Source: Balamuthia mandrillaris (taxonomy: Eukaryota). Taken from it: DNA of 64,000 nt. Below are positions 12,653 to 64,000 of this stretch, one piece after another. Each line of letters begins with the position of its first letter. Positions within the stretch are counted from its first letter, which is position 1. The DNA lies in assembly GCA_031835245.2 (NCBI GenBank), contig JAVKOQ020000082.1, forward strand, positions 1 to 64,000, given 5' to 3'. Both the position numbers and the translations under genes were made by a program. Below the pieces are notes generated by a model. The model ran no database searches, had not been told where the DNA came from, and was given only the letters and a program-made list of their open reading frames with translations.

Positions 12653-12696
<44 letters not shown>

Positions 12697-13722
12697 CAGG
12701 GCCGAAAGGTTTATCCTGAGGCCATTTGATGATGCGAGCATACTCAATGCAATGCTCAGGGCGACGAGGAGTGTTGGCAATAGTACAAATCTGGAAGGTG
12801 TTGCGAGGAGGAAAGAGGGAGAGCGAACATTCGAAGCAGGCGGTGATGCCTGGCAATATGATCCTGGCTTGTCCCTTGAAGCCTTCGGTACCGCCATCGA
12901 TCATGGGAATAATAGTATCAGGGTCGATGTTGCCCTCGTCGTCGATGTTGACCATGCCCACCAACACCGAGTTCATGTACCTACGTGCCTCGATGGAGTC
13001 CAACCCGCAGATGACCAGGTTGAATTGGGCATAAAAGTCATCGTCTTTGTCTTGGATCTTGCAAAAGTGTCTAAAGGACAGAACCAAGCGAGTGAGTAAC
13101 TTAAGCAGATAAAGGTATAAGGGGAGAAGGAAAAAGACGGTACGGTGTAACATGACAACCAGGAATCCTTTCGTTGATGAAACGGGCAGCAACTTCAGCC
13201 TTTGGTTTGCCAACGTCGTCTTGCCTATTTGTTTGTGAAGCAACATGTTGGTGGGAGATGACCAATACAAAACAAAAAGTACCAAACCGGGAAACCAACC
13301 TGAACAAGAATTGACGGTTGAGGTTAGAAATGTCGATGGTGTCCATGTCGATCACCTCAATGTCACGGAAACCGGACAAGGCCAAGTCCTTCAACAACTC
13401 GCAGCCCAGACCGCCGGCACCGATCACCAGGAGCTTGCAGTTAGGGTCTCCACGATCATTTTCGAGCGCCCTCAAGTAGTTTTTCAGCTGAAAGGCAACA
13501 AGACACCAAATTAAACAAGAGGGCAAACAAAGACAACAAAGAAAGAAAAACGATCCAAAGAGAAACGCTATCGTAATCAGCCGCTCAGAACCAGGAAAAG
13601 TAAAAAAATACCTTTGGGGATTCGGCGGTGTCTGGTTCGAAGCCCTCGCCAGCGTAGGGACCGTCCCTTTCCAACAGCTTGTACACGTGATCCCACCTTC
13701 CTTCGGGTTCTACAATGTCCAT
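11943..13722 (-). CDS. UBA3: NEDD8-activating enzyme E1 catalytic subunit
   Basis: [44 protein letters not shown], catalytic [32 protein letters not shown]-terminal LEKKTRPNL. Confidence 0.95.
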
Positions 13723-14065
13723 CGTTGTTTATCTTCTTCTTTTTGTGGCTAACGAAAAACAAAAAGTAAAGGTCTTCCCACCAACGCACGCAGCGCTTTC
13801 CACTACTCTTTTTTTTTCTGTTAATCGGAGGGGGTGAGGTTGATCCCGCGAGGTTCTTTGATTTCGTGACGACGCGGGTTGTCTTAGCAGGAGGCCTGCA
13901 CCAAACGACCAGTTTTCGTTGTCACCGAGCATTTTTTCGAGTTTTATTCAAACATTTATTTATTTTTTTGTTGTTGGTGGTAACGCAGCAACGGAGATAA
14001 CCACACTTGGTGGAGACACCCTTTTTCTTGTTGCCCCCTCCCCGTTTTTTGCAAACAGAAGAGAG

Positions 14066-14163
14066 ATGAGTCGTTTTGGTCTTGGGTAAGTCTTGTTGGT
14101 GGCAAAGGATATATTTGCACAACACCAAAAACAAAATTATGTAATGCATAATGTTTTTTTTTT

Positions 14164-14197
<34 letters not shown>

Positions 14198-15180
14198 TTC
14201 TGGCATACAACACGCAGTAAGGCAAGCCGTACCTTTAAACCGATCAAGAAGATCCCCAAAGGAACCAAGCAGTATGAGCTCTCTCAGCAGGCCTTGATGA
14301 CCCTTGGAACTGGCAACCTCCATCTTGCCGTCCGTTTGCCCGAAGGCGTTGACCTCAACGAATGGCTCCTTGTCAACAGTTTGTTTTTCTTGTTCCATTT
14401 TCTTTTTTTCTGCTCCTCTCTCTCTCTCTCTCCTTCTCTCGTAGTTCTTGTTCTAAAACTGTTCCTTCCGCATGAAACCACTCCAGCGGTTGACTTTTAC
14501 AACCAGATTAGCATGCTGTATGGGGCTCTCGAGGAAAGCTGTACTGCCACCTCATGTCCCGTCATGTCCGCCGGTCCCAAGTACCGTCTTTGCTCCGCTC
14601 TCCTTCTTTCTCTGAGTCTTCTCCGTTTGCCTCTTCTCCGCTTTTCTTGTTTCTCTCTATGTTCTCTCTCTGCTCTCTCTATCTCTCCGCATTCTTCCCT
14701 TCTTTTTTCTTCTCCTCTTATTCTCTTTTCCTCTTCTCTCCTGCTCTCTTCTTTTGCTGCTCTCTTACTCCTTCTCTTCCCACGCTTCTCTTGAAAAGAG
14801 CGGAGTATTACTGGGCAGACGGAAAGGATGTGAAGAAAGCCATCCGCTGCTCCGCAAAGGAATATGCCGACTACCTCCTAACATGGGTCAAGAGCCTCAT
14901 CGATGACGAACAGGTCTTTCCCTCGAGCGTCGGTCAATCCTTTCCCAAAAACTTTAAAACGTTGATAGCCACCATCTTCAAGCGCCTCTTCCGGATCTAC
15001 GCTCACATCTATCATTCTCACTTTCCAACCATTCAAGAACTTCAATTCCAGACACATCTCAACACTTCTTTTAAGGTTTGCTTTTCTCTCTCTTTGTTTG
15101 TTTGGTTTTCTCTCGGCTCTGTGTCTTCTTTTCCTTCTCTCTGCTCTCGCTCTCTCTTCCGTCTCGCTCTCTCTTCTTTG

Positions 15181-15223
<43 letters not shown>

Positions 15224-15465
15224 GTTCTCTTTTCTGTTCAATTCTGCATGCACTAACCAACGAGCAGCACTTCATCTACTTTGTGGACGAGTTTAAGCTT
15301 GTAAAGAAAAAGGAATTAAGTCCGATGGGAGAACTGGTGGAGGCTCTTCTCAAAAAGAAGATTGCAGCCTCCGGAGGAAGCGCCGGTTCTTCCTCTTCTA
15401 CTTCCTCTGCTGCTCACGACGATGACGAGGAGGAAGAAGAGGAGGATGAGGAAGAAGAGGCCTGA
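14066..15465 (+). CDS. MOB1: MOB kinase activator (MOB1 family)
   Basis: TFKP...TLGTGNLHLAVRLPEGVDLNEWL, VDFYNQISMLYG, CPVMSAGP, IFKRLFRIYAHIYHSHF, HLNTSFKHF. Confidence 0.92.
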
Positions 15466-15610
15466 AGAAAACACTTGGCTTCTCAGGTTTCACTCTGTTA
15501 GTAGTTTGTTGTGTTTGTGGATAACTCGAGTTTCTTTTCGCTGCATTTGTTTGTTATGAAGAAAGTAAAACTAAGAAGAACAATCAGAAAGAAGACGAAA
15601 GAAAAGACTT

Positions 15611-16846
15611 TCAGCCCCTGTTCTTGCCTTTCTTTCCTTTGCCCCCACGAGGATTTCCTCTTCTTGCCGCGTTCTGTTTCTGTTCCTTGGCAATGGCCAA
15701 GTTGGCCGCCTTCTTCGTATCCACAACAGCCGTCTCCTTGCCCAACACCTGGTTCAACAAACCAAGGTTTCGTTTCTTCTCGTTCGAGCCTCCTTCTCCT
15801 TTTGTCTTTTGTTTGGTTGGCTCTACCACCGCATCAAACCTGCGTTTACCTCTTTGCACGGTGCCCGTCTTCTCGCTGGGGAGCCGCTCGTTGAACTTGC
15901 CCACGGAGGCAGTGGACTGATCCGCCAGCTCGATCTGTTTCTTCAGCAGGTTGACCTTCTCCTTGGAGTTGCCCTGTGTGGGCATGCTCTTGTTCTTGCT
16001 GGAGGGAACGGAACCAATGCCCATTTTCTTGGCCTCGAGTTGCATGGCCTCCAGGCGGTTCCGCTGCTCCCTCTTTTGTTGCTTCTGGAGGCGCTCCTTC
16101 TTCTCCTGCCGCATCTTCTGGAAGGGGTCCTCGTAGGGGTCGTCCATCTTCTCGGCCTCCACCACCCAGGTGTCGGCCAGCTTGTCGTTGGCTCGTTTGT
16201 AGCCGTGGGCGCGCCTCCATTCCTGGTGCGTCTCGTCCCACACCAACTTGTCCTTCTTCTTCTTCTGGATGCCCTTTGCCTCTGCGAACTTCTCCCACCG
16301 TGTTTGCGGTTTTGGCTCTGGAATCTAATCGAGGGACGGTTTCGGGTTTAAAAAAAAGTGCAGCCCAGAAGAGAGGAGAAAATGGAGGAAAGAGAGAAGA
16401 GAAGAGAAGAGAAGAGAAGAGAGAAGAAAAGAGAAGGCTAGAAGAGAGAATACGGGAGGAGGGAACGAACGTGTTTCTCACGAGGAATGGCAGTGGTGCC
16501 GCGGGGAAGCTGCGCCAGGACCTCTCCTGATTGCTGTCGCTCGGTGGGGAGTGATAGTATTTTGTTCAACAACAATTGCACACAGTCACGGCCTTCCTCC
16601 GCACAAAACGTGCTCGGGCCTTTCGACCTAACGCATAAAGAATCAATCATTGATGAAAATCCTTTTCTTTGGAAGATGGAAAAAAAAAATAAAGCGAAGA
16701 AAAATGCGGTACCGCAATTCGGAGAGATCGATCGGTTGGTAAGCAAAGGCTGTGAGGTTTCCCAGGTCATACTCCAACCCCGGATCTCTGTCCAACATCA
16801 AGGCAGGATCAGCCTTGGGCAGCTCGATTTTGGTGGGCTCTTCCAT
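15611..16846 (-). CDS. RRS1: Ribosome biogenesis regulatory protein
   Basis: EYDLGNLTAF, GRDCVQLLLNKILSLP, LPRGTTAIPREK, TRWEKFAEAKGIQKKKK, WRRAHGYKRAN, STASVGKF. Confidence 0.93.
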
Positions 16847-32739: not shown

Positions 32740-33232
32740 GGTGTACACGTTTCGTGGAACTCGCCCTTCTTCAACAAAATGAATTTGGAGCTCTTTCCCT
32801 TCCCGAAAGAAATGGGCGAGCGCAAGGAATTGGGGTTGCGAGCGCCTGCCACCCGAAAGAAGACGAGGTGGGGGAGGGGGGGTTGGGGGCGGCCTCATAC
32901 CTTGCTTTTTTTTTTTGTCGTCTGTCCGGCTTCGAACTTGCGGCAAGGTGCTTGCCACAGCGCACCCTTTCGAGGTATTTTCTAACGTTTGCAAAAGCTG
33001 AAAAAGGTAGCGAACGGTAGCTCTTGGTGACTCAGTTATTTATGACTCCATTTTTTTTTTTTTCGGTTATTTCGCACCGAAACTTTTTTTTTTCTTCTTT
33101 TTTTTTTCCCACTCCCTCTCGGCTTGTGCTTTTTCAGGAAACCAGGTAAAGTCAGGTATATAAAGTCTGTTTTGTTTTTTTTTTTAAAAAAAAAATTGTC
33201 TGCACACGCGAACACACATTTCAAAGGGACGC

Positions 33233-35947
33233 ATGGAAGCAACAACGGAAGGGAGCAAACGACGGAGGAGGAGGAGAAGAAGACCACGATGGGAGAAGGT
33301 GGAGAAGGAGGAGGAAGAGGAGGAGGAAGCCCTTCCCTACCTTCCCGCCATGTTCCACCGCTTCGCACACTCGACCACCTGCGACCTCTCCAAGAGCTAC
33401 CTGACCGCCTTGCCGAGAGAGGTTGGCTGGCTGACCGCCCTCACTGTATTTAACCTCATGGGCAACCAGCTGAGCTCCTTGCCGAGCGAGTTTGGCAAGC
33501 TCACCGCTCTCACTGCCTGCGACCTCTCCAACAACCAGCTGGCCTCCTTGCCGAGAGAGTTTGGCCAGCTCACCGCTCTCACTTGCTGCAACCTCTCCTA
33601 CAACCAGCTGACCTCCTTGCCAAGAACGTTTGGCCAACTCCGTGCCCTTACCGACTGCAACCTCGCCAACAACAGGCTGACCTCCTTGCCGAGAGAGTTT
33701 GGCCAGCTCACCGCTCTCACTTGCTGCAACCTCTCCTACAACCAGCTGAGCTCCTTGCCGAGAGAGTTTGGCCAGCTCACCGCTCTCACCCGCTGCGACC
33801 TCCACCGCAACCAACTTACCTCCTTGCCAAGGGAGTTGGACCAGCTCACCGCTCTCACCTTCTGCGACCTCCGCCACAACAGGCTGAGCTCCTTGTCGGC
33901 AGAGTTTGTCCAGCTCACCGCTCTCATCCTCTCCGACCTCGGCCACAACGCTCTCACCCTCTGCGACCTCAGCCAGAACTCTGTCACCCGCTGCGACCTC
34001 TCCAGAAACCAGCTGTTATCCTTGCCGAGAGAGTTTGGCCAGCTGAGCGCTCTCACTGCCTGCGACCTCGCCAACAACAGGCTGAGCTCCTTGCCGAGAG
34101 AATTTGGCCAGCTGAGCGCTCTCACTGCCTGCGACCTCTCCAACAACAGGCTGAGCTCCTTGCCGAGAGAATTTGGCCAGCTGAGCGCTCTCACTGCCTG
34201 CGACCTCTCCAGAAACCAGCTGAGCTCCTTGCCGAGAGAGTTTGGCCAGCTCACCGCTCTCACTGACTGCGACCTCTCCAACGACAGGCTGACCTCCTTG
34301 CCGAGAGAGTTTGGCCAGCTCACCGCTCTCACTTGCTGCAACCTCTCCAACAACCAGCTGACCTCCTTGCCAAGAACGTTTGGCCAACTCCGTGCTCTTA
34401 CCGACTGCAACCTCTCCAACAACCAGCTGAGCTCCTTGCCGACAGAGTTTGGCCAGCTCACCGCTCTCACCCACTGCTCGCTCTTCTGCAACCAGCTGAG
34501 CTCCTTGCCGAGAGAGTTTGGCCAGCTCCGTGCTCTCACCCACTGCAGGCTCTTCTGCAACCAGCTGAGCTCCTTGCCGAGGGAGTTTTGCCAGCTCACC
34601 GCTCTCACCGATTGCGAACTTCCCAACAACAGGCTGAGCTCCTTGCCAAGAGAGTTTGGCCAGCTCACCGCTCTCACTTGCTGCTGTCTCTCAAATAACA
34701 TGCTAACCTCCTTGCCGAGAGAGTTTGGCCAGCTCACCGCTCTCACTGACTGCAACCTCTCCAACAACCAGCTGAGCTCCTTGCCGGGAGAGTTTGGCCA
34801 GCTCTCCGCTCTCACCCGCTGCTACCTCTCCAACAACAGGCTGACCTCCTTGCCGAGAGAGTTTGGCCGGCTCACCGCTCTCACTGCCTGCTGTCTCTCA
34901 AACAACATGCTAACCTCCTTGCCGAGAGAGTTTGGTCAGCTCACTGCTCTCACGGAGTGCTGGCTGTGCAGCACCCAGCTGAGCTCCTTGCCGAGAGAGT
35001 TTGGCCAGCTCACCGCTCTCACCCGCTGCGACCTCTCCAACAACCAGCTGACCTCCTTGCCAAGAGAGTTTGGCCAGCTCACCGCTCTCACCCACTGCGA
35101 CCTCTCCAACAACCAGCTGACCTCCTTGCCAAGAGAGTTTGGCCAGCTCTGCGCTCTCACCCGCCGCCTTCGCTCCAACAACCAGCTGACCTCCTTATCG
35201 AGAGGGTTTGGCCAGCTTCCCGCTCGCAAATACTGCAACCTGGAGGAAAACCCATTGGCAGCACTGCCCTCCTCTGTGATTCGTCTTCTTCCATGCATGC
35301 GAACACAGTCCTCTCAACTCCTTCACCTACAAGAAGCACAGCTTAAACAAGCGGAGGAGAATGATGAAGAGCAAGAGGAGGATAACAGAGCGAAGCCCAA
35401 GGAATCACCGCTCAGGAACAACCACACCACAGTGAAAAGTTTGTGGCATTCGAGTGGAGAGGCGGTGCTGAGGAACAAGCTTTTGCCCACTGACCTGTTG
35501 ACCCTTGTTCCAGACCTTCCCTTTGCTTGGTTTGGTTCTTCTTCTTCTTCTTCTTCTTCTTCTTCTTCTTCTTCTTCTTCTTCTTTGCTTGCACAACGCC
35601 TCAAAGAAAATGTGGAGGGTGCGGCGGTGGTGCTGCCAGAAGAAGTGAAGGACCGGCTGGAAAGGTTGCAAAGGAGATGTGATGTTTGTGCGCAGCTGTT
35701 TTTGGAAGCAGACGAAGATGAAGCTGAAGACGAGGCGGAGGAAGAAGCGGAAGAGAAAGGGCAAGCAAGGCAAGTGGTGAGAAGGTTTTGGGACGAGGAA
35801 AGGGAATTGTGGTGGGAGTTGTTGTGTTGCAGCCAGCGCTGCTTCCACCGCCCCTTGCTGGATGTTTCCTTGCAGTGCTTGCCTCTCGCAGAGGAGTCCA
35901 AAGTCCGTGTCGTCACGGTTAATATCCGTGACGACACGAAAATGTGA
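33233..35947 (+). CDS. Intronless LRR protein (~26 x 23-aa repeats) with C-terminal BC-box-like helix and Cys4 Zn motif
   Basis: Repeat consensus LxSLPREFGQLTALTxCxLxxNx; C-terminal VKSLWHSSGEAVL...LPEEVKDRL...CDVC...CCSQRC. Confidence 0.9.
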   Translation: MEATTEGSKRRRRRRRRPRWEKVEKEEEEEEEALPYLPAMFHRFAHSTTCDLSKSYLTALPREVGWLTALTVFNLMGNQLSSLPSEFGKLTALTACDLSNNQLASLPREFGQLTALTCCNLSYNQLTSLPRTFGQLRALTDCNLANNRLTSLPREFGQLTALTCCNLSYNQLSSLPREFGQLTALTRCDLHRNQLTSLPRELDQLTALTFCDLRHNRLSSLSAEFVQLTALILSDLGHNALTLCDLSQNSVTRCDLSRNQLLSLPREFGQLSALTACDLANNRLSSLPREFGQLSALTACDLSNNRLSSLPREFGQLSALTACDLSRNQLSSLPREFGQLTALTDCDLSNDRLTSLPREFGQLTALTCCNLSNNQLTSLPRTFGQLRALTDCNLSNNQLSSLPTEFGQLTALTHCSLFCNQLSSLPREFGQLRALTHCRLFCNQLSSLPREFCQLTALTDCELPNNRLSSLPREFGQLTALTCCCLSNNMLTSLPREFGQLTALTDCNLSNNQLSSLPGEFGQLSALTRCYLSNNRLTSLPREFGRLTALTACCLSNNMLTSLPREFGQLTALTECWLCSTQLSSLPREFGQLTALTRCDLSNNQLTSLPREFGQLTALTHCDLSNNQLTSLPREFGQLCALTRRLRSNNQLTSLSRGFGQLPARKYCNLEENPLAALPSSVIRLLPCMRTQSSQLLHLQEAQLKQAEENDEEQEEDNRAKPKESPLRNNHTTVKSLWHSSGEAVLRNKLLPTDLLTLVPDLPFAWFGSSSSSSSSSSSSSSSSLLAQRLKENVEGAAVVLPEEVKDRLERLQRRCDVCAQLFLEADEDEAEDEAEEEAEEKGQARQVVRRFWDEERELWWELLCCSQRCFHRPLLDVSLQCLPLAEESKVRVVTVNIRDDTKM
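33401..35254 (+). repeat. Tandem array of near-identical 69-bp coding repeats
   Basis: The unit core CTCCTTGCCGAGAGAGTTTGGCCAGCTCACCGCTCTCAC recurs at 69-bp period; one 60-bp irregularity near 33950-34009. Confidence 0.95.
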
Positions 35948-47676: not shown

Positions 47677-48110
47677 ATGGAAGAGGTGGAGAGGATCATC
47701 GCTGTCTTCAAGCAGATCGACGTTGATGGAAGTGGAGGTACCTCTTATTTTTTTTTTAAAAAAAAACGAAAACCAAAAACCACCGCTTTTTTTTGTAACG
47801 AAGGTCTAATAAAACTAATTCGAAACGGGTTGCTTTGCTTGATTATTTTTTTTTTGAAAAAAAAGTGGTGGACCGATCAGAGTTTGAACAGGCGGTGACC
47901 CAGCTGGAGAAAGACAAGGGCACCCCCGAGCACCTCATCCCCGAGATTGTGGAGAAAAAATTCAGGAAGGCCGACAGGGATGGCTCTGGCACTGTGGATA
48001 TGAGCGAGTTCCTCCGCAGCTACTACGATATTTTCGATGCCGAAAGAAAGGAAACCGCCAAAATCGTGGCTGAGTCTTCTGGTTTGGTTTCTCCCCCTCC
48101 CTTCTCTCAT

Positions 48111-48146
<36 letters not shown>

Positions 48147-50703
48147 TCATCGTTCTCTTCTCTTCCTTTCTCCTTTCTCTCCTTTTCTCTTAGTCATTCT
48201 CTCTTCTACTCTTCTCTTCACGCTCTCACATATACAAACAAAACAGGTCTGAGCGAGACAGAAGCAGAGCAACTGTTGCAAAGGTTCGAGGAATACGATC
48301 TGGACGGTGATGGCGTTATTGGTAAGAACGACAACCTCAGCCATTTCTTTCTTTTGCAGACTTCTGTTTTTTTTTCTCCTCTCATGCAACACACCGTTTT
48401 TCTGCGTTGTGTAAATCAACTTTCTTCTTTGTTTTCCACACGTTTTCTTTTTCTTTCCTTCTTTCTTTCTTTCTTTTTCTTGACACGTTATAACAAGCAA
48501 ACCTATTGTTGGTAACCTATCTTTGTTCTCACACGCAACACGAAAATATAACGAACAGATCAAGACGAGTTCTATCAGCTGAAAGCCGAATTAGCACCTC
48601 ACGTCTCCAAGTTGCTGGTAAGACAGGACAGCAACAAGCTATTCAGAAAAGCCGACAAGGACAAGACAGGCGCTCTCAGCAAGGCGGAGTTTCTTGAAGC
48701 CGTTTCTGGTCTCCTTGGTCAGTCTTCCTCTTTGGGTGACAGCAGTGGCGGTTCATCCTCTTCAGGTATGAGCGCAGACAGCGTGTGGAACGAGTTCACG
48801 GAGGCCGACAACGTGGTGGCCATCCTGCAACGCTTTGACGAGCTGAAAGAGATCTGCGGCGTTCCAGCCGGCGCCACCGCAGCGCAGCTCTACGATGCCA
48901 TCAAAGCCAAGACCCAAGCCAATTATCGCAGCAAGGTCCTGTGGAAGCTGCTTGACGTTAAGAAAGCCGAGGCCGTTTACAAACCCAAACCTGGGGACAA
49001 GGAACTTAGAGTGTTGATCGTGGGTGCGGGACCTGCTGGCCTGAGAACTGCGGTGGAGGCCCTGCTTTTGGGCGCACGTGTGACTATCTTGGAGAAGAGG
49101 CTTAAGTTCACGCGTCACAACTTGCTTCACATCTGGGACAGCTCTATTCGTGATCTTAAGAACATTGGAGCCAAATATTTCTTCCCTCAATTCTGTACTG
49201 GAGGAATCAAGTGCGTGTTTTTTTTTTCAACGCTCTCTCTCTCTCTCGCGTCCTTTCTTATTTCTCTTTCTTCAATTTATCTAACATACGTTTTGTTGGC
49301 TCAGTCACATTGCCATCAGAAGGTTGCAAACGCTGTTGTTGAAGGTGTGTTTGCTGTTGGGAGCAAGGTACTACCCTCGCGTGGACTACCAGCGCACCGT
49401 GGAGGACAGCGGCAGCGACCTCTGGAAGGCCGAAGTTACCAGCAAAGGAGCTGCCCCCAAAGATGAAGATCTTTTGTTCAACGTAATCGTTGGCGCTGAT
49501 GGACAAAACTCCAAAATAGCGGCAGACTTCCATTTTGAGCGAAAGATAACTAAAGGAGGATTGGCCATTGGCATCACTGCCAACTTTGGTATTGTTTCTT
49601 ATATTTCGTTTCTGTTTCTTTGTTTTAACTGTTGTCATAACAACGCGCAGAGAATAAGCAAACCAAGGAAGAAAACAATCTTCGTGAGTTTGGGTTGTTG
49701 GCGGTGTACAACCAAGGCTTCTTCAAAGCGCTTAACGAGAAGTACTCCATTGACCTCGAAAACTTGGTGTACTACAGAGGAGAGACACATTACTTTGTCA
49801 TGACCGTCAAAAAGCAAAGGTTAACCATCATTACTCGTTCTTCTGCTTGTTCTTTCTTTTTCTTTTCTTTTTTCATCGATTCTTGTTTTTCTTCCATTTT
49901 GTCTTTTCTTTCTTTGCTTTGTAATCTTCTATGCGAATTTTCTTCGATACTAACCCTACGTGTTGTTTTCAAAGTTTGTTGGCCAAAGGAGTGTTGAAAC
50001 AGGACAGCCAAGACACACAAGGCCTGGTGGCTCCCAACAACGTGGCCAAAGAGAACTTGGAGCAGCTCTGCCGTGAGGTCGCCCTCCATGTTGGGCTTCC
50101 CACCAGCGTTTCCTTCTCCAAGAACAGCCGTCACAACAATGATGTTGCCATTTTCGACTTTTCCAAGTAACTCTCGTCTTTTTCTTCTTCTTTTTTTCTT
50201 CATCTTCTTTCTTCTTACATATTTATATAAACAACAACTTAGCAAGCAAGTATGTACCGAACAAGCCAAATTGTTTGGAGCTGGTATGGTAGAGTTAGGC
50301 GTATCTGGTGGGCCTTCTAGCTCCTCTGCAGCCGCTGGTGGTCCCCGCCAACCACTTCTCGTTTGTCTGGCCGGCGACTCGGCCATCGAACCCTTCTGGC
50401 CTTTGGGCACTGGTTCAGTCTTTCTCCTCTTCTGCTTTCTTGTTCTCTAGAAACTAAACTCGTTCTTCTGAAACGACAGGAGCGAATCGTGCCATTTTGG
50501 CGGCGCAGGATGCTGCCTGGATGATGAAGCGCATGAAGGAGGGAGGGGAGAAAGAGGACCCTCACAAGCTCAGGGAGGAGTGGGGCAGCTATTACAAGAT
50601 CCTGATGACCGCCGAGCAGAAGGACTTGGAAAAGAACTTTGGCAAGCATACCATGGACCCCTCCACACGTTACACCAAGAACACACTCTCCCACTTCCAT
50701 TGA
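47677..50703 (+). CDS. EF-hand x4 plus MICAL-type FAD monooxygenase (F-actin methionine oxidase family)
   Basis: EF loops DVDGSGVVDRSE, DRDGSGTVDMSE, DLDGDGVIDQDE, DKDKTGALSKAE. MO motifs IVGAGPAGLRTAVE, LEKR..FTRHNLLHIW, LAIGITANF, IDLENLVYYRGETHYFVMT, DVAIFDF, GDSAIEPFWPLGTG. Confidence 0.9.
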
Positions 50704-51629: not shown

Positions 51630-54600
51630 ATGTCTTTTTCGGGCTTTGGTTTTGGCGGGGGCGCGCCGGCCTTTGGGTCTGCTCGTTCTACTCCTCCGTC
51701 CGCCATCCCGCCGGTCACTACAGCCCCAACGCAGTCCGCGTTTTACCGCTCCACCACCAGCTTTGATCAAAACGCAACTGCTTCTTCCTCTGCGAACCCT
51801 TATTTAGTGGGCTCCACCGCTTCTGCTTCTTCTCCTTCGACCATTCCTTATCCTGTAATGCCCCCTTCTGCAGCTTCTTCTGCTTCAGCTTCCCCTTTGT
51901 CAGGCCTGGCTTTTGCCTCACCTCTTAGCCACGCCTCGGGAGTGCTACAGTCCATCAAAAAGAATGGACTGGCTCAGGACCCTGCCGCCTTGATCGAGCA
52001 GCTGCAGCACATCAAGGACGCCACCACCAAGATGGAGTTGAGCGCCTCGACGGTGGACTCTCTCGCCTCCACGGAGGTTGCTCTGTGGCGGCGCTATCAA
52101 AGGCAGCTGGCCCGGTTGGAGGACGCGGCCTGGCTGCAGCTCAGCGAGAAAGCCCTTCAACCCTCTCACATGACAGGCCTGCATAAGCTCCTTGGCATGG
52201 AGCAGAAAGAACTAGTCTCAGCACAAGAGAAGGCCGACGCCAAGAATAGACGCGAGACGTGCAAGCTGCTGTTGAAGGAGAAGGCCAAGTTGATAGGCAT
52301 TGTGGAGGAGCTTGGAGTGGAGGAAGCAGGCAACCCCACCAACAAGGAGGGACCAAACTTTTCTCTATCATGGAACGAAAACCAAAAGACTCTTTCTCAG
52401 CTGTTGGGTCATCTCTCTTCCTTCACCGCTAAAACGAACAGCTTGGACCTTGATGTAGAGACACACGCGAAGTTGATGCAGTACGTGAACAAATCGGTGG
52501 AAAGAGAACGGCAGCGACAAACCAAGGTTCGTCTCTCTCTGTCTCTGTCTCTCTGTCTCTCTCTGTCTCTCTCTTTCTCTGTCTCTGTCTCTCTCTCTCT
52601 CTCCCCTCCTTCTTTCTCTGTTTTTTTTTTGCGAAACTTGTTCTAAATGCCTGAATGCAGCGCCGTTGGAAGTATCGAGCTGCTACCGCTGAGCCCCAGG
52701 CGCAAAGTTACAGCAACACAACCAAAGTCCCGTTCATAGTATCGGTTTTTAACCGGACGTTTCCTCTGTTGGTGCAAACATTGCACAAATCGCAACACAC
52801 GACTACTGCGGAGAGCATTTTCAATCGATTGCGGGACGTGATCCTAGAGCAAGAAGACTTTGCAAGCGTCAAATCTGCTGCAATGCAATTCTCCGCCGCT
52901 TCATATGTTTCAAGCAACGTTCGCGCTGACAAGCCGAGTCAAACTTCGTTTGGGTCTGCTGTTGGCTCCTCAACACCGTCCACATCTCCGTTTTCGGCTC
53001 CCTCTGCTTCTGCTTCTTCCTCTCTTCTCACTTCTTCTTCTACTTCGACTACTACCCTGGCATCAGAAGAAAGCGAACCTATTCAAGAAGAGGAGCATGA
53101 GCACAACAAATATGCGAATGTTTGCTATGCCGCCAAGTTGTGGTTGGGTCAGTTGAAGACAACTTGGAGCACAACTCTTCGTGCACTTGATGCAAATGCT
53201 GTCCAAGCAAAAGTTGGCTTACTCTTTGCATTACTCGGTCAAATCTCTGGCCTCTTTGTAAGCAATTTTCTTCCTCTCTCTCTCTCTCCTCCCTTTCTTT
53301 CTTGTCGTCTCTCTCTTTCTCTCTCTCTCTCTTGCTCTCACCTTTTTTATTTGCCAATACTGACGTACCAGTTTTCACATCAGTTGTCTTATTACTTGCA
53401 TGCAACATATCCAGCGGCACCTGTTGAGAGTGCCTTCACTGCAGACTTGAGCAAAGTAACCCCTGAACTGCTTATCTTGCTTTGCCACGACATCTTGATC
53501 CCCGCTGTCTCTTCTCTGGGCGAAACAGATGATGAATTTTGCAGCACCTTTCTCAAGCTCATCATCCCGCTGTACCAACACAACATCGGAGCTGTTGGTT
53601 CGCCAGATAACAGCAATAAGGCGGCAGCGAGCACCGAACCGCAGACGTGTAAAGTTACTGATGAGGAGGGGGTTATCAAAGTCTCCCTTCCGGACCAGAA
53701 CTGCAATACCAACAATAACAGCAGCAACAGCAAGTCTTCTACTACCAATTCATCCTCTTCAGAGGATCAATTCCTCGCCCAGGATGATGCTCATAATGTG
53801 TCTCCTCTGTTCTTGGGACACAATCTTAGTGAGGAACCTGCCGAGTGGTCACAACCCCTTAAGACTTGGTTGCACACGTTGCTTCCTGCTAACTCACCCT
53901 TTGGAAGCTCTGTTGATTTTGCTGCGGAGATCGTTACTGATAAGAAAGAGAAGAAAGAGCATGCGCTACCTCCTCCGCTGCAACACTCACAAAAGCGGCC
54001 AGAGCAAGCAGTGGAAACCACAAAGAGCAAAGATACTCAGATTCAAGCTGCAACTGCTTTGACTTGTCACGTTTTGATACGGGGTTCTATGGAAGATATT
54101 CTCGCCGTTGTCAAGTCATTTGTGTTACCACAACAGGAAAGCTCTTCTTCGAAGGATGAGGACGAAGATGAACACGATAAGTTGCGTGACATTGCAAACG
54201 ACGAGGATGAGAGCCTGAGCATTGTGCCTACCACAAAAGCCAGGACTGCTACTGTTACCTCCTCTCCAGCCGATCTGATTCTTGATATAGCCCCATTCTT
54301 GTATAAGTGGGGCCAAAAGACCACTTCTACTAAACAATTAGGTTCGTTCTCCTTGCTTTGTTCCTTTTTTTTTAATTCTTTTGTCCCCTTTCTCCTTTTT
54401 ATTTGTCCTCGTTGCTTTCTTCGATCATATTTAACGCTGTTTTTTTTTTTTTAAAACAAACAACTTGAAGCGCTCCTGTGGAACTCCTTCAAATCTATGA
54501 TGACCCAGACTAAAACTACTTATGCCTACAAAGACGGTTTTCTCTACCTTCATAACACCGGGGGCCTCTTTAAAGTTGGTACCGGTCAGCATGGCACCAT

Positions 54601-57600
54601 CGCCAATCGAATCTACAATGCCGTTCAAGGCTATCGCTCCAAAGAAAAGGGTTGGCTCGCTGTCGCTGGTGATAAGCTCTATTACCGATCTAGCAATACT
54701 GGCTCTGCCTCCCTCCTCGCTCTTAACCTGGAGACATTGACGGTAGGCTGTCCTTAGCTTGCTATTTTCATATCTACCCTTTTGTTTAACATGAGTTTGT
54801 TTGGGTTTGCTTTGGTTTGATAGGAAGAAGCAGAATTTAGGTCACCAACGTTTAAAGCAGCGTTACCTCAGCTATCTGCTCCGCCAACTCCAGCTGAAGA
54901 TCAAACGAAAAGAAAGAAAATGGAAGAAGAGGAAGAAGCAAAGGAAAAAGAGCAAGCATCCCCTTCTTCGTCTACCCCCGCCGCTCCTACTGCTACTGCA
55001 CCTATCGATGCTTCGGAATCACAACAGAACAACCAAAACGACACCGAAAGTAATACAGAACAAATACCGATGAGTAAACTGAAGATCATTCAACTAGACA
55101 AATCGTCTCAGCACTTCCATCCTGAGAAAAACGAGCTCACCGAGTTTCGGTCTCCCCTTTTGTCTGATGGGAGATATCTGTACATCGTAAGCAAACTAAC
55201 CTCTCCGCAGGAGCAACAGCAACAGCAACAACAAGCCAACAAACCTGCTTCTAGCAATGATCTCTTGTCTCCCAGTGCAGCTGCTGCGAGCCTGTTTCCT
55301 CCCAAGAAATTTGGAACAGTGCCTCAAACCTCCTCTGGCTTCACGCTTTTCTCCTCTTCGTCTTCCTCCTCGTCGGACAGTTCTGCCTCTTCCCAGTCAA
55401 GTGGCTTTGGTGCATCAACACCATCCACTACTACTTCCTCCTCCTCCTCGGTTACGTTTGGTGGATTCGGAAGTGGTTCTGGATCTTTATTTGGAAGTAG
55501 CAGTAACTCTTCTTCCTCCTCTTCATCATTTGGTGGTTTTGGCTCTTCTTCACCCTCGTTGTCATCTCCTGGTTTTGGCTCGTTGGCTTCTTCTTCTTCT
55601 TCTTCTTCCCCATCGCTTGGAGGATTTGGCTCTTCTTTACCCTCGTTGTCATCTCCTGGTTTTGGTTTGTTAGGCGCCACCTCAGCTCCATCCAGTTCCT
55701 TCAGCTTTTCCAACGCCACCACTCCCTCATCTTCCTTTGGGGGCTTCGGTTCAACAACAAGTTCCTCGTCTTCTGCTTTCGGTGGTGGCTTCGGTTCGAC
55801 AACAAGTTCCTCGTCTTCTGCTTTCGGTGGTGGCTTTGGTTCAACTGGTGGAGGATTTGGCAGTACTGCTACAAGCTCGTCCTTTGGGTCAGGTTCTTCC
55901 TTTGGAGGCTTTGGTTCAACAACAAGTCCCTCTTCTACTTTTGGTGGTGGATTTGGTTCGACCGCTGGAGGATTTGGAAGTACTTCCTCCTCCTCTGCAT
56001 TTGGTGGTTTTGGTACTGCCACTACTCCTTCGTCTTCTTTTGGCGGCTTAGGAGCCCCGCAAACCTCCTCTTCATCTTCGTTTGGCGGCTTCAGCTCTGG
56101 AGGAAGCTTTGGAGGCAGCGGCTTTGGAGCGTATACCACCACTGGAGGATTTGGTTCGACACTCTCCTCCTCTCCGTTTGGAACTCCATCTTCCACTTCA
56201 GGCGCGTTTGGATCGACTACTACTCCTGCCACCTCTACTCTTGGTGGATTTGGAAGTTCTCCTTCTTCAGGTGGCTTTGGATTTGGCTCAACTCCTTTTG
56301 GCACTGAATCTCCTTCTTTTGGTAGCGGAGGTTTTGGCAGCAGCTCTTCTTCCTTTGGAGGGGGTTTTGGAAGCACTTTTGGCGGTGGCTTTGGGTCCAC
56401 CACTCCATCTTCTACTCCTGCTTTCGGTTTTGGCTCGACTGGAGCAACAATTTCTTCTTTGTCTTCTACCCCTTCTTCCGGAGGAAGTGGTGGCGGCTTA
56501 GGGAGCCGCGCTACTGGCTCTATCTCCTCTGGCGGGAGTGGCGACTTTGGTTCCTCTGCATTTGGTGGTGGAGGTTTTGGGTCGACCGCTGCTTCCCTTT
56601 CTTCGGCCTCCAGTGTTCCACTGGGAGGAATTGCAACTTCTGTTCCATCTTCTACCACCGCCACTACAAGCCCAAGTGATGGCGCACCTCAAAGAGAAAG
56701 GCTATGGATGATTGGCGTTCCTACTACTTATGATGAAGAGAGGATTAGGGAGCTGCTCGTTCCTTTTGGTCGTATTACCTTCTTCTTCATGGCCCGTGAT
56801 TCCAGCGGACAATTTACTGGCCGTGTTCTTGTGGAATACAGAGACATTACCTCTCGAGGAGAAAGCGGAACCGAGGAAGAGCGTCCCGTTGTAGATCGTG
56901 TAATCGATGCTCTGAACGGATTCCCCCTGGAGGATTCCACGCTGTCCTTCGAGAGAGTGCCAGTGCCGCAGGATCAACCTACCACCACTAGCACCCCTCT
57001 TTTCGGTTTAACATCTTCTTCTCCTTCTTCGGATAGCACTACTTCTTCCACTTCCATTTTCGGTAGCGCGACTACGCCCTCTCCTACTTCCGCGCTTCAG
57101 ACCAACCCTGCTCCATTTGGAATACCGCTGACCACTCCCCCATCCACCGGCACTTCATTGCCGATCCCTGCTGCACCAGCGCCTTCTTCTTTGTCCTCTG
57201 CTTCTTCTTCGTCTGCTTTTTCATCTTTCCTAATGAGCAGCGAGGAGAGAGCCAAGAAAGAGGCCGAAGACAAGTATATTGTTGAGATCTTTGATCCCCA
57301 ACTGGAAGGCATGCCCTTGATTCGCCGCGTGCAACTCAAGAATCCAACTGGTCTCTTCTCTTTCTTTATTCCATATTTTACTCTCTCTTCTCTCTCTCTC
57401 TCTCTCTTTGCTATATGTCTTTCTCTTTCAATTTGTACTAAGATCTCTTTGTTTGTTTGTTTTTAGGTTTGAAACTGTTCCTTAAGAACAACGGCACAAC
57501 TGTCTTCACTCCACCCGCTCCCAGGGAATGGGCCGGCTTCGACTTTCAGGTCATTACTGCCATGCCTCAGTACAGCCACTATTCCTTGGAGGAATTGCGT

Positions 57601-59966
57601 GCATTGTACTATCAACCCGGCATTGAGATTCCTCCCTTCACTTTAACCCAAAAGATCCTTCGTTCCGGCCACTTCTTCACTGATGGGCAATATCTGATGG
57701 TGGTTGTGGAGACTAACAGTAGCACCGCTCAACCACAACTGGATGACAGCCTCTCGAACAAAGACCAGTCGTACATATGCCGTTTGTTCTCATTGGCGGA
57801 TGGAGCTCACATTTGTGACTCCATCTCGGATCGAGTTCTTCCGAATTTCCATCTGGGTAAATTCTCTCTCTCTCTCTCTCTCTCTATCTTGCTCTTGCTC
57901 TTTCTTTTTTTTTTTTAATCGTCTTCAACTACAAAAAGGCTTTTCTCTGTACGACTACTTGATGTCACCTGCGAACATTCAAGAGCTACCAGAATGTGCG
58001 CTTCCCCAAAAGATCCACGACAGGGAGCGGGAATACCAAGCTAGAGAAGAACAAGAGAAAAGAAAGGCTCAAGCTAAAAAACTCGCAGCTGTTGGCATTG
58101 AAGCAGTAGGTAAAGAAGAGGAAACAGAACTAGAAGCAACATCAAAGAGTGCAGAACCAGAAGTTGCTGGCAAAGAAAAGAGGCCCGAAGAAAGCAAGGA
58201 TAAGGAGAAGGAGGAAACTGCCTCTTCTTATGCTATCGTACCGCCCAGACAACCTATCTCAGCGATGCACGCATCAATATCCATTTTGTGCTTCCTCGAC
58301 TTCTTCTCCAAGCATTTCCAGGCCACCAGAGAATTCAAGGACAAGAAGGAACAAGACAAGGACAAGTCTGACAAACCTTCAACAACACCCTCTTCTACGT
58401 TTGGCTCTAGTTGGGCATCTTTCTCTGCCAACGCGCCAACAGGTGGTTTTGGAACCTCTGTTGCATCATCAACTGATGGTGTTGCCAAAAAAGATGGTGA
58501 AGAGAAAGAAGGCAAGACAACGGAGGATGACCTTCAAAATATCTGCATCTACGACCATAGCGGCCAAAAGATCTTCACGTTGACCTCTTCGCCGCAGGTG
58601 TTTGCGCATCTTCTTTCTATCATCGAGTTCTATGGCACGCTCTTCTTCCCTGCTGTTGCTCCCAGCTCCACTTCAGCTTTCATCTTCGCGTCCTTGGCTG
58701 TTAACGACGTGCGTGCTACATGGAAAGAATGTGTACAGAAAGCCCATGTGCTATTGACCAGCATGAAGATCTTTCGACGAGCTCTCCATCACGCTCTTCA
58801 CTCGGAGCGTAAGTTTGTGTTCAGCTTATCCAGCCAAACGAATGCCGCTGAGACGGAAGAACGTTGCAAGCGACATATTCGTGACTTATTGATGCGTTTC
58901 ATCTCTGGGGTCGAGTTGGGCACAACTCTCTCTAGCTTTTCTGTGGAGCAGAAACAGATAGTTGCGGAGAGTCTTCGATTGATACAGAAAACAAGCTGCG
59001 AAATCTTGGTCTCTGCCTTTGACTACTTTTACACTTCGAAGGAGCTTTGCGAGCTACTCTGCGAGTTGTTGCAAGAGCTGGGTTCCGCTTCTTCTTCCAG
59101 CAACAACTTGATTCATGCGAGAGGCTTGCTTAGCCACATGTTAGTGGATAAACTCACCAAAGCCTACTTCTTGCCGCTCTGTCACATCAACCAGAGGACC
59201 GCACTCGCAGAACAAGTAGCGCGATTAGAGAAGTTACATAAGACCTTGGTTGAAGAAGCAGCACCAAAGCAACAAGAGAGTAAGGAGGAGCCAGAACAAC
59301 AAGTGTCACAAGAAGAGGAGAAGAACAAGAAAGAGAAGCCCATAGATGACTCGGAGAGCAACGCGAAAAAAGAAGAAACGGAAGAAGAAGCTCAACATCT
59401 ACTCAAAGAGAGCATTAGCTCTTCCGAAGAAGCGTCTTCACAGCAAGAGGCATTGATGGGCATTGTTGGACTTTTGGTCAAGATTGTTGCGCTCGAGTTC
59501 AAGAACCACTTGGAAACGGCGATGATCCCTTCTCAAAAGTTGCCATTCGTGACCGCTTCACAAAATCTCGCTATGTTGAGCAGCTTCCAGAAGAATATCT
59601 GCGAGTTGAGCACCAAAGATCTCCTTGACAACAACTCAGCTGCTAATGCAGCTCTTCTTGACAACGCTTCTCTGTTCCGAGGTCACAATGACACCAAGTC
59701 TCCTACTTCTGCTGCACCGTCTTCACACAAGGACCAAGTAGAAGCTCTTCTTACACAGCACAAAGAAAGGGCTAAGCTATTTACGCTTCGCATTTTGGCG
59801 GGGTACACGAAGATTATCACAAAACAAGCCACCATTGTTCTGGAGAGCATGTTCAAGTACCTCCAGGAACACCCATTGCCTCCTCCTGCCTCTTCTACCC
59901 GTACTATCGAGACGTACACATCTACACCCACTCCTGATGGTTCTACGCTTGGTCGTCACCTGTAAG

Positions 59967-60015
<49 letters not shown>

Positions 60016-63000
60016 CCTCCTCCGTTAGCTCTGCTCTATCTATGTTCGCTGTTCTCTGCTCTTCACTTCGCTCCTAACAAAGAACATTGTTGCAGTGCAT
60101 CAACCCGCAAAGACACAACAGACGAAACTCCAAACATTACGCATATTTTGCAAGAGTCGTTTGTTGGGGTTTTGCTACCTTCCTTGGTGGCTTCCATGAA
60201 CACGTTCGCCCAGCACACATCGCTCTCTGCCCAAATGCTTCCCATTTTTCTGCCCCTGTTGGAGGTGTTGGACAAAGTGTGTCAGCTCGTTCCAGAGGCT
60301 CAACATGCAGAAAAGGCCTTCATTTCCAGCATCTTAGGAGGCAATTATCAAACCAGTGGGCTTTTGTATGTTTTCCGCTTCCACTCCTCATTTCTGCACT
60401 TTTGCTCAATTCTTCTCTCTTTCTTATGTTTTTTTTAAAATTTATTGTCAACTCTCTTGTGCTGTGTATAGGGACTCAGTGACACCCTATTCATGGTTGA
60501 TGAAGCTCCACAAGACTCTGTCGTTCTTCTGTGGCACTGCTGCTGCTCGCCTAATTCAAGGCAATAGCACTACCGACGAGGAAAACAGGTACAAGACCTG
60601 GATAGAGTCTCGCCTCTTCAAAGGTGGTCTGGAACGTCCATCACATCAACAAGGTGGTTTGCACCTGACCCGAGCACAATTCTTGGAGTCACTCTTGTCC
60701 TTGCAGCCAGCCGACTCGCAAGCAACTCTGCTTGCCGCTTGGATGAACGAGAATATAACTGCCAAGAAGCCTCTTGGCAAGATGGGTGGAGATGAAGGTA
60801 TTCATTTCTTCTTTCTCTTTGATCCACATAGCAAATTCTCACCAAACAACAACAAAATATAATAACAGTGAGCCAAGCAGAACGTGCTTGCGTTGCCGCA
60901 CTGCTTAAGCACAATAATCTAGTAAACGAAGCAATGACATTTGCTCACTGGCTAGAGGGTCACAAGGACTCGCAATCAGAAAAAGGCGAGATTGTTGCTC
61001 CTCCCGGTTTGCAGAAAGTTTGGGAACTGGCTTACGATCTACGCGTGCATCTTATTCGAACAGGGCAACAAATGCAAATGGCCCAGGCGGAGAATGCTAA
61101 ATCTAGGTGATGTGTCGTTCTTCCTCTCCTTGTTTAATATTTGTTGTTTTAACTGACTGACTGTCATAATTGTCTTCGTTCTTGTTTAGGGCTGAGATTT
61201 ACACGGAGTTGGCAAAACCTATCGTGGAGAAGGCTCGCTTCTTGTTGAGTTTGGCTGCGCCCGCCCAGAAAAAAGTAAGACTGAATGTGTCTGCTTCTGG
61301 AGAAGAGGAGGAGAAGGATGAACTGGAACACAAAGACCGCAACGCCTCTCCCAGTTTGTCCGGCCGCGACTCTCGTCAACGTCTCACACGATCCACTTCT
61401 TCCGCATTGAGGCGTTCGGGAAGTCCTCCCAGCACCCCACGGCAGCTCTCTCGAGCTCGTTCTTCCAGCATCATGGAAAGAAAGAAGCGCAAGCAAAAGG
61501 TGGTAGATGCCTATGCCCTGGACGATAGTTCTACTCTGGAGGGAGGGACTGGTGGTTCTAGCGAGAACCAAAGAAGAGTGCAACAATCTTTCAAGATTTG
61601 GCGCTTCGTGAAAGAGATTTCCAGCGACCAAGTAGCTCAAATCACTTCTCCTGTTCGCCCTTCTTCCGCCTCGTCTGCTGCATCATCAACTTCGGCCTCT
61701 CCATCTACTCCCTCAGAGGCGAGCGGTGCTTCGAACTGGGCCGCCACTTCGCCAATTTCTGTCGCGTTCAAACAAGGAGGCGAACGCGGTAGCAACAACA
61801 ACTCTGCCGTTTCGGTTTCTAGCAGCATCACCTCCTTCCTTCAATCCAAGGATATCTCCGTGGAAAGCCTTCATCAGGTGCTGCAACAAAGGAAGGCTCG
61901 CGGCAAGCAACGCGTGCTGGGCCTCAAGTCGATGCAAACTGCTTTGGCCAATACGCAGACCATCAGTGTGAAGCATGATCTCTTCCGTTTCTTGCTATAC
62001 GGCATTCAGAACTTCAACAACACCACCCAACATCAACAACAGGACCAAGTTGCATTGTCTCCATCTGCCATTAAGTCCTCTCACTTCTTAGACAGAGTGG
62101 AAGGATGTGGTCCTCACGTAGCAGCTAAGCTTCAAGAGACGTTCTACTCCCTCTTTGACAGTCTGTTGAGCTATCTGCAGACAAACCTGGTGGAAGAGGC
62201 TCTACTGCGCTTCCTCACTGTTGAGATCTCTACCACCACCACCACCGAGAGCAACACCCTTGGAAGGGAGTTGCAACGCTTCAAGCTGCGTGCACGTAAG
62301 AGGGTTAGCCTCTTGTGCGCTAATGTTATCAAGATGTTGGTGCTGGAGCTTTGGGCTACTTCACAGTTCAGAGATACGGATCATAAGTTCTTGCAAAAGA
62401 TTCAGATCTTTTCCGTGTTGTTGACTCTGGTTCATCAAAGTAGAGAGGAAGATGAAGAAGAGAACCAACTACAGCTGCACCAGCAACAAAGCAACAACCA
62501 CGCAGGTGCACAAACAGCAAGTACTTCAACCACGCAAGACATAAAGAGCAGTACCACTACCACTTCTCCTTCCTTCTCGCAAACTTCGGGCATGTCTTCG
62601 TCTTCCTCTTCTTCATCACCATCCTCTTCGGCTCCATCCTTCATAATGCCATCCTTCTCCCTCGTTAAAGCTCAAAGAGAACAAGAAAACAAGGACAGAA
62701 GAAAAGCCCAAAAGGCATCATGGGTTACTCTCAAGCTCATGCTTACCCTCTGTTTGGGTTTGCAAAACGACAAAGAGCAAAGCGAGCTCAACGCCAGAAA
62801 TAAGAAGCTCTACGAGCAATACGTGGACCTCAAAGAAGATGAGGAACACGAGGAGGCGAAATTGCTCAAAGAAGAAATCGGAGAGTTGAACTCCTTTCAA
62901 ACCTCTCTATTTGACCTCATCTTGCAAGAGCTGGAACGTTCCATGCAACTTTTCAAGAAATACGAGAAGCAATTGCGTCAGCAACACGAACACGACAAAG

Positions 63001-64000
63001 AAGAGTCCTCGTTGTTTGCAGCCAATGCGTTCCTTCCCTGGCGCAAGTATGCAGTGGACAAGCTAGACTCTGCTGAGTTTTACAAAGCAGAGAAGAAGTG
63101 CTATGAATGGCTTTGCTTGGTCTACCCTATGACTAGCTCCAAAGTGGTTTGCAGCTACATCGCCTCCTCCTCCAGGAAGTCGATGGAGCTTATTTTCACG
63201 CTTCTTCTGTTGGGCTCTCTTCGCATCCAACGTCTCGTCTTCCGTCTTTTGAGGAGGCTTCTTCCCTTCCTAAAACCTGAGAGAGCGGATTATCTATGGA
63301 GAAACGCCACTCAAGGATTGAACCTACGTTCATCGACTTCTGCTTCCTCCGGCGCCCAGTCTGCATGGACCTCGTTGAATGCAGAGATGGCGGGCAACGA
63401 GGTGGGCATGATTGGTTTCTTGTTGGACGCCATTGGCAGCGCTTTGCTCAACGCATGTCCTCTGAATGATAATCATCTCACGCAAAGCGATATTCGAAAC
63501 TCGGCCATACGTTACTTGGCTTCACTAAAGAGCGAAAAGAAGAAAGTCGTGGACGCTGCGCAGTCTTCTTCATCTGCCTTAAGTGGTTCTACTTCCTCAT
63601 CTCCAACCTCATCGTCGGCATCATCATCAACTTCATCATCTGGGACGCTCTTTTCTTCCGCAACAACGGAGCAAGTAGGAAGCTTGTTTTCTCTACCTGC
63701 AACGACGTCTCTAGAGAACTCTACAGATGATCCTCTACGAATGACGAAACGTAAACTCGCTCTGCATCACCAATCACAACCACCTACTCCGACGTTGTCT
63801 GACCCCTTCGCCTCTCCCTCTTACGTGCCACCGGTGGTGGAGCAGCAAAGACGAGAGCAACTTGAGAGGAACTTGTCCTCCACCACTCGTGCGCAATCTT
63901 CGTTCGCGTTCCATAACGCACCCCGCATTTCGCTTTCTTCAATGCCTCCTCCTCTTCCTCCTTCGTCTTCCTCTCCGTCGGCTCCTTCCTCTCCAACTGG
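51630..64000 (+). CDS. Giant HECTD4/MYCBP2/HERC-like protein (N-terminal part; runs off window) with FG-repeat, RRM and GLEBS-like insertions
   Basis: Chain of spliced + strand exons, open from ~61190 to the window end. DGFLYLHNTGGLFKVGTGQHGTI...GWLAVAGDKLYYR is HECTD4/PHR-like; WIESRLFKGGLE, AERACVAALLKH and PIVEKARFLL are HERC-like. No catalytic domain is visible in the window. Confidence 0.7.

Follow-up and report, generated by a model that had tools for sequence, protein, structure and literature searches.

A putative Nup98-type GLEBS motif at a conserved site of a giant Balamuthia mandrillaris protein, a candidate docking site for Rae1

Results

The stretch of Balamuthia mandrillaris DNA analysed here (64,000 nucleotides, positions 1 to 64,000 of contig JAVKOQ020000082.1; the window) contains the gene for a giant protein that runs off its 3′ end. 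Within one exon of this gene, on the forward strand, positions 57544-57615 encode FQVITAMPQYSHYSLEELRALYYQ, a segment that resembles the GLEBS motif of Nup98. The comparisons below support its assignment as a Nup98-type GLEBS that selection appears to have maintained at a fixed position in a giant protein which is not a nucleoporin. On balance, we consider it likely that this motif docks Rae1/Gle2 onto the giant protein, which would serve as a scaffold and possibly as a ubiquitin ligase.

An earlier note, written from the letters of the window, had proposed that the segment follows the Nup98/Nup116 GLEBS pattern with the conserved Asp replaced by Tyr. The replacement was read correctly, and the pattern is supported by Pfam (E 1.1e-5), by Nup98 chains in places 1-7 of a PDB search and by conservation in orthologues. 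In Pfam, the 24-residue motif matches PF21240 (Nup98_GLEBS) at 25.8 bits, and the 129-residue exon that carries it matches the same family at 21.6 bits (E 2.4e-4), no other family reaching E ≤ 1 on this exon. Both scores stay below the curated cut-off of 27 bits.

Searches of the PDB with single sequences ranked Nup98 chains weakly (E 0.036-0.044); matches of the exon to LGI1 (E ≥ 0.03) were discarded as spurious. A profile of the orthologous segments was then compared with 177,635 PDB sequences, and the top seven matches were all Nup98 chains, the best with E 4.6e-4. These alignments span Nup98 residues 184-214, within the fragment of human NUP98 (residues 181-224) reported to be sufficient for RAE1 binding (PMC2133102). 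Against repeat 1 of the fungal Nup98 P0012, a 47-residue segment aligns with 16 of 24 residues identical. Finally, a profile of 18 GLEBS-like repeats from other proteins gave the motif exon 40.0 bits, while the runner-up among all 1,762 segments from a six-frame translation of the window reached 6.9 bits and the best segments in 20 shuffles 5.0-10.2 bits. One caveat here is that the training repeats were themselves retrieved with the motif exon, and hence this control is biased in favour of the motif.

The motif is read in the expected frame. Splicing of the preceding intron joins the RRM exon to the motif exon in the frame of the motif, and this joint is seen in 17 raw reads from all three RNA runs (2, 7 and 8 reads; one study). 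In addition, a contig of run X1 (3,154 nucleotides) spans 56694-57349, 57466-57854 and 57938-59961 with zero mismatches, and so links the motif exon to the RRM on one side and to exon 7 on the other. The RNA status of run X1 is a guess; X4-X6 are RNA runs that were matched by species label and have reads over the gene. Both other frames of the exon contain stops. Because RNA reads splice the exon in frame, the objection that it might be used in another frame, which the earlier note had raised against itself, is removed. The exon described there as 57468-57856 does exist, with its start one base earlier, at 57467. Within the motif, the sole listed read difference is synonymous.

Orthologues and conservation

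A comparison of the motif exon with 1.84 billion representative proteins returned 12 matches, comprising three fragments of orthologues (P0003, P0005 and P0008), six other GLEBS-bearing proteins and three cadherin or Ig repeat proteins (P0004, P0006 and P0010) that we dropped as spurious. We also scanned metagenomes for the locus, seeding the scan on the strands downstream of the motif so that it was independent of the motif itself. Five loci were confirmed among 127 candidates, and all five carry the GLEBS motif. Of these, L001 encodes P0003. The other four, L002-L005, all come from a single further lineage and are nearly identical to one another. Collinearity with the window gene extends over exons 3, 4, 5, 6 and 9, over exon 10 (32% identity) and weakly over exon 11. 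Among viral contigs, none of 20 candidates is related to the gene. In three lineages besides the window species, distant orthologues keep the motif.

Across the four copies (window, L001, L002 and P0005), 12 of 28 motif positions never vary (W-G, Q, I, M, Y-S, EELR and Y), and pairwise identities range from 14 to 20 of 28. Nine of the 12 invariant positions are also present in both repeats of the Nup98 P0012. The EE pair is found in all four; in Nup98, residues E201 and E202 are reported to form conserved salt bridges to Rae1 R216 and R172 (PMC3783196). Between L002/L003 and L004/L005, there are four synonymous and no non-synonymous changes over 36 codons.

The last Tyr of the motif is likewise kept in all four copies, and the Asp that precedes it in none. 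Since this Asp is present in just 8 of the 18 GLEBS-like repeats of other proteins, it appears to be dispensable in sequence terms. The invariant W-x-G, in turn, suggests a family-specific contact. It lies in an extension upstream of the core that may be the equivalent of a shortened GLEBS hairpin; a conserved F-x-P there is at most suggestive of the N-terminal hairpin that lies over the Rae1 propeller in Nup98, and profile positions 1-17 are unmatched.

The host gene

The window carries eukaryotic sequence, in which the introns are short and of the GT..AG type. We modelled the host gene with 10 such introns and 3,769 stop-free codons up to the window end, which places the motif at residues 1777-1800 of the protein, with more than 1,900 residues after it. 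Reads or contigs support five of these introns: raw reads span the joints of introns 4 and 5, pieces of the X1 contig delimit intron 6, and loose-end letters point to introns 3 and 8. Introns 1, 2, 7, 9 and 10 come from the model and from collinearity with the orthologues. The description of a giant protein therefore stands as a model in which half of the introns are supported by reads or contigs.

Over 54400-60400, the RNA runs X4-X6 indicate two haplotypes or another strain: many differences occur at a frequency of about one half, alongside small insertions and deletions that keep the frame. One of the 40 read differences listed (71 more are unlisted), 60337 G>T, would by itself create a stop in exon 8. 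It occurs in four reads (two starts) of X4 and in none of nine reads of X5 and X6, and could be either an error or one piece of a change that involves several bases.

The motif sits between two conserved β-strand blocks. AlphaFold2 models of this region are poor, with a mean predicted local distance difference test score (pLDDT) of 53.6 and 48.7 on a seven-row alignment. In these low-confidence models, strands flank the motif and a helix covers EELR; pLDDT is below 50 for the motif in both, compared to 60-70 for the flanking strands. Fold searches with the better model returned nothing at E ≤ 0.001 (best Z 4.8). Exon 4, a conserved block that may be propeller-like, gives a weak kelch-repeat match. 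In the ESM Atlas, the leads are hypothetical or DUF5050 clusters for exon 4 (0.89-0.91) and helical-repeat clusters for exon 11 (0.89-0.90), and no clear family emerged for the scaffold.

The earlier note had also placed the motif on a ubiquitin-ligase-like scaffold. This part of the proposal did not find support, as no HECT or RING domain was matched by Pfam in the 11 exon segments scanned, which stop at the window end; the same holds for RCC1, PHR and Nucleoporin2 (S59). Because the gene runs off the window, with its C-terminus beyond it, a C-terminal ligase domain would be missed, and the orthologue contigs end earlier still. A possible likeness links exon 4 and exons 9-11 to parts of HECTD4, HERC2 and MYCBP2. 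Comparison of exon 11 with PDB sequences was uninformative. Word-indexed searches for homologues with exon 6, an exon 4 alignment and an exon 10 alignment found 0 matches among 173, 817 and 7,998 candidates, respectively, in a set limited to proteins of ≤2,000 residues, which puts full-length giants out of range.

The RRM and the FG tract

Upstream of the motif, the protein contains a tract rich in Phe-Gly (FG) dipeptides, mostly as GGFG and SSFG, and then the RRM. The tract (residues 1071-1493) is internal, ends about 280 residues before the motif and has the RRM between it and the motif. Of its 52 Phe residues, 47 are followed by Gly, compared to a mean of 13 and a maximum of 27 in 2,000 shuffles, so the tract is no compositional accident. 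It contains no GLFG, 35% Ser, 1% Asn plus Gln, less than 1% charged residues and 16.5% Phe, Ile, Leu, Val and Met (FILVM). Nup98 FG domains are reported to have a median of 43 motifs and 13-17% FILVM (PMC4283134), and the tract is near them in motif number and hydrophobicity.

In L005, the picture is different. Between the β-strand anchor and the RRM, the window protein has 47 FG in 513 residues and L005 has one in 83; a further 179 residues after the L005 RRM contain none. The RRM itself is shared; in L005 it scores 37.1 bits and finds PABP, PUF60 and U2AF65 as top PDB chains. RNP1 reads G-Y-A-F-F in L005 and G-R-V-L-V in the window. The aromatic residues of RNP1, present in L005 and in U2AF65 RRM2, are lost in the window protein, where RNA binding may have become weaker or disappeared as the FG tract expanded. 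Since the RRM is common to the orthologue and the FG tract is absent from L005, the conserved core is apparently GLEBS plus RRM (window and the L002-L005 group), with variable low-complexity inserts. Thus, of the FG, RRM and GLEBS module put forward in the earlier note, the co-occurrence of GLEBS and RRM in one protein stands, the RRM being present in the orthologue as well, but the FG tract is missing from L005.

In the interval between RRM and GLEBS, L005 (2879-3655, forward strand; residues 147-171) weakly matches a zinc finger of the RanBP2 type (15.5 bits, E 0.01); the window has nothing but Ser/Thr/Pro-rich sequence in this place. The T-F and M residues of this finger are reminiscent of ubiquitin-binding NZF fingers.

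Table 1. Features of the giant gene and of the region around the GLEBS motif
Feature	Position	Strand	Details
Putative Nup98-type GLEBS core, Q-x-I-T-x-M ... S-x-EELR-x-x-x-Y	57544..57615	+	EELR from 57589; translation, Pfam, alignments, PDB profile
N-terminal extension of the core, F-x-P and family-specific invariant W-x-G	57487..57543	+	Alignments; beyond the part matched by Pfam and PDB
Exon 6: motif, then conserved helix and β-strand block (57634-57855)	57467..57856	+	Secondary structure from low-confidence models
Intron preceding the motif exon	57351..57466	+	GT..AG, phase 1, spliced in RNA; position common to L002-L005
Conserved strand pair directly upstream of the motif	57272..57349	+	54% identical to L002/L005 over 28 residues
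RRM	56699..56962	+	Pfam RRM_1 19.9 bits (cut-off 20.7); best PDB matches U2AF65 RRM2, E 6.8e-5
FG-repeat tract	55310..56581	+	47 FG in 424 residues
Exon 4: conserved β-rich block	54471..54742	+	48% identical to L005
Host gene model	51630..64000	+	11 exons, open at 3′ end, at least 3,769 residues
Host gene exons 1-6	51630-52526, 52661-53257, 53384-54341, 54471-54742, 54824-57350, 57467-57856	+	
Host gene exons 7-11	57939-59961, 60096-60365, 60472-60797, 60869-61106, 61190-64000	+	Exon 11 open

Other genes of the window

The upstream neighbour of the giant gene (47800-50700, forward strand) encodes EF-hand-like repeats joined to a flavoprotein monooxygenase-like domain that is presumably MICAL-like. 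Farther upstream, a 919-residue open frame (33188-35947, forward strand) has highly regular leucine-rich repeats, which also keep long frames open on the opposite strand. The genes within 12286-16324 look like ordinary housekeeping genes; from their translations, we take them to encode a ubiquitin-like activating enzyme (reverse strand), a MOB1-like protein (forward) and an RRS1-like ribosome biogenesis protein (reverse). No tRNA was found in the window.

Discussion

Several observations weigh against docking of Rae1 by this motif. All four orthologous copies score below the PF21240 cut-off (25.8, 21.3, 19.5 and 15.4 bits), and the N-truncated fragments P0003 and P0008 had no Pfam match at E ≤ 0.01. 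The PF21240 match covers profile positions 18-36 of 39, that is, the C-terminal half, and leaves positions 1-17 unmatched. The invariant W-x-G is absent from Nup98, and the Asp has been lost throughout the family. The motif is also no more conserved than its surroundings (12 of 28 positions invariant, versus 10 of 23 in the adjacent strands), and a structural element would look alike. To these may be added the poorly supported read difference at 60337, a possible stop, and the ligase domain that was sought in vain within the window.

Many of these observations are shared by a different explanation, namely that a captured GLEBS was repurposed. It would then have a structural or intramolecular role, packing on the protein's own β-propeller-like domain, or bind another WD40 partner, and would not recruit Rae1. 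The position between conserved strand blocks, the W-x-G, the lost Asp, the level of conservation and the sub-threshold scores all fit such a history. However, 9 of the 12 invariant residues are those shared with Nup98, including the EE pair used for the Rae1 salt bridges, and the low pLDDT of the motif next to better-modelled strands speaks, if weakly given the seven-row alignment, against this explanation. We regard repurposing as unlikely. Chance resemblance, or a decaying remnant without function, has in its favour the shortness of the motif and, again, scores below the cut-off. The E value of 1.1e-5 against all of Pfam and the shuffle control argue against it, as do conservation in four lineages, with the pairwise identities given above, and the synonymous-only changes. 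Conservation has largely refuted this explanation, which we hold to be extremely improbable.

Other alternatives accept a functional GLEBS and differ in what it does. The earlier note envisaged FG, RRM and GLEBS as a Nup98-mimicking module that enters the nuclear pore and acts in mRNA export or surveillance. The non-random FG tract, with its Nup98-like motif number and FILVM content, and the X1 contig, which links RRM, motif exon and next exon, are consistent with such a module. Set against this are the near absence of FG from L005, the tract's composition (no GLFG, rich in Ser, poor in Asn and Gln) and the degenerate RNP1 of the window RRM; we judge a mimic of this kind to be quite unlikely. 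Alternatively, the motif could bind Bub3 instead of Rae1 and so tie the giant protein to the spindle checkpoint. The Bub1-type motif, likewise, is not known to carry the Asp. Moreover, Bub3 and Rae1 are reported to bind GLEBS motifs in closely related structures (PMC3779320). No Bub1, BubR1 or Mad3 chain, however, appeared at E ≤ 10 among the 10 PDB rows obtained with each of the exon, 48-mer and profile queries, a search in which short motifs can be missed, and Bub3 seems a very unlikely partner. Five pattern scans for a Rae1 or Bub3 gene gave, respectively, seven loci, 15 and 4 matches on viral contigs that are due to chance, and 0 and 0 on genome contigs; of the seven loci, two were translated, and both proved to be a phage gene of no relation.

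We therefore return to Rae1 docking as the preferred reading. In this case, the EELR helix would form salt bridges with two conserved arginines atop the Rae1 propeller, much like E201/E202 of Nup98, and Rae1 would serve the giant protein as adaptor or tether, recruiting it to the places where Rae1 works, on RNA, at the pore or on the spindle. The conserved neighbouring RRM would add an RNA contact, with the FG tract a later addition confined to one lineage. If the scaffold is of the ligase type, as the possible likeness to HECTD4, HERC2 and MYCBP2 would have it, the protein would represent an independent route to the link between ligase and Rae1 that is known from PHR proteins. A more far-reaching version, which we find speculative and rather improbable, is that a conserved family of giant ubiquitin ligases in protists took up the Nup98 GLEBS, together with a U2AF65-like RRM, into loops of the β-rich N-terminal domain. 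Such enzymes would seize Rae1-bound RNA or ribonucleoproteins and ubiquitinate them or their proteins. One lineage would have gained a RanBP2-type zinc finger that binds ubiquitin or RNA, and the window lineage an FG tract of Nup98 size, through which the ligase could partition into the pore; this would amount to an RNA-export quality-control ligase without a described counterpart, convergent with the PHR-Rae1 system.

The motif is most similar to the GLEBS of Nup98/Nup116 (PF21240; PDB 3mmy_B, 4owr_B, 7byf_B and 7vpg_B), with which it shares the core Q-x-I-T-x-M...S-x-EELR...Y, the spacing and the EE pair; in the window species, an FG tract of similar motif number lies nearby. It differs in the lost Asp before the last Tyr, the extra invariant W-x-G and the unmatched N-terminal half of the hairpin. 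Here, the GLEBS lies in the middle of a protein of >3,700 residues, between folded strand blocks and outside the FG domain, and the part within the window has neither GLFG nor a Nucleoporin2 (S59) domain. By its architecture, the giant protein is not Nup98, although its motif would be expected to work as the Nup98 GLEBS does. The GLEBS of Bub1, BubR1 and Mad3 is similar in that a helix with an EE pair sits on top of a WD40 propeller (PMC3779320), but the motif described here has the Nup98-type ITAM-x-x-Y, and it matched no such chain among the rows of three PDB searches.

For a giant ligase that binds Rae1, there is precedent in the PHR family (PMC4806438; PMC12664034). The PHR ligases MYCBP2, Highwire and RPM-1 are large scaffolds with a RAE-1 binding domain, in which a small motif is conserved (PMC4806438), in agreement with the earlier note, which had described Rae1 as a partner of these ligases through another motif. 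Both are scaffolds of great size that have a short Rae1 motif, binding being predicted in our case, and the N-terminal β-rich blocks may resemble those of MYCBP2 and HECTD4. On the other hand, the PHR motif is not termed GLEBS in that description (PMC4806438), and no RCC1-like, PHR or RING family was matched within the window. Rae1 is described as acting downstream of PHR proteins in worms and upstream of them in flies (PMC4806438).

GLEBS-like repeats also occur in other proteins. Of the six other GLEBS-bearing matches (P0002, P0007, P0009, P0011, P0012 and P0013), only P0012 is a Nup98. The rest include a Tulasnella protein that consists largely of five repeats (P0002), a Myrmecia AAA+ protein (P0009), proteins of Flagelloscypha (P0011) and Mycena (P0013), and a protein of 552 residues (P0007). 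They are similar to the giant protein in having GLEBS outside Nup98, often without the Asp, but are small hypothetical or unnamed proteins with two to five repeats, whereas the giant protein has a single fixed copy. The occurrence of such repeats in several unrelated proteins suggests that GLEBS is a mobile module. Because of this mobility, and because Rae1 binding and ligase activity are predictions, the surprise of finding a GLEBS here is limited. In the papers cited here, the GLEBS carriers are Nup98/Nup116 and Bub1/BubR1. In Entamoeba, Nup98 is reported to lack a GLEBS (bioRxiv 10.64898/2026.09.13.750810); were this also so in the window species, the motif might have been transferred to the giant protein. 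Searches combining GLEBS with ubiquitin ligase, HECT, Amoebozoa, basidiomycete, Dictyostelium or PF21240 found, among the matches listed, no title or beginning of an abstract that describes the motif in a protein of this kind.

The new element described here is a GLEBS that is present once, at a fixed position of a conserved giant protein, and that RNA connects to an RRM. On the preferred reading, these eukaryotes probably have a conserved and so far undescribed partner of Rae1, which would compete with Nup98 for the same surface. If the scaffold is indeed a ligase, it would provide a second, simpler case of the link between ligase and Rae1, the purpose of which is disputed in PHR proteins.

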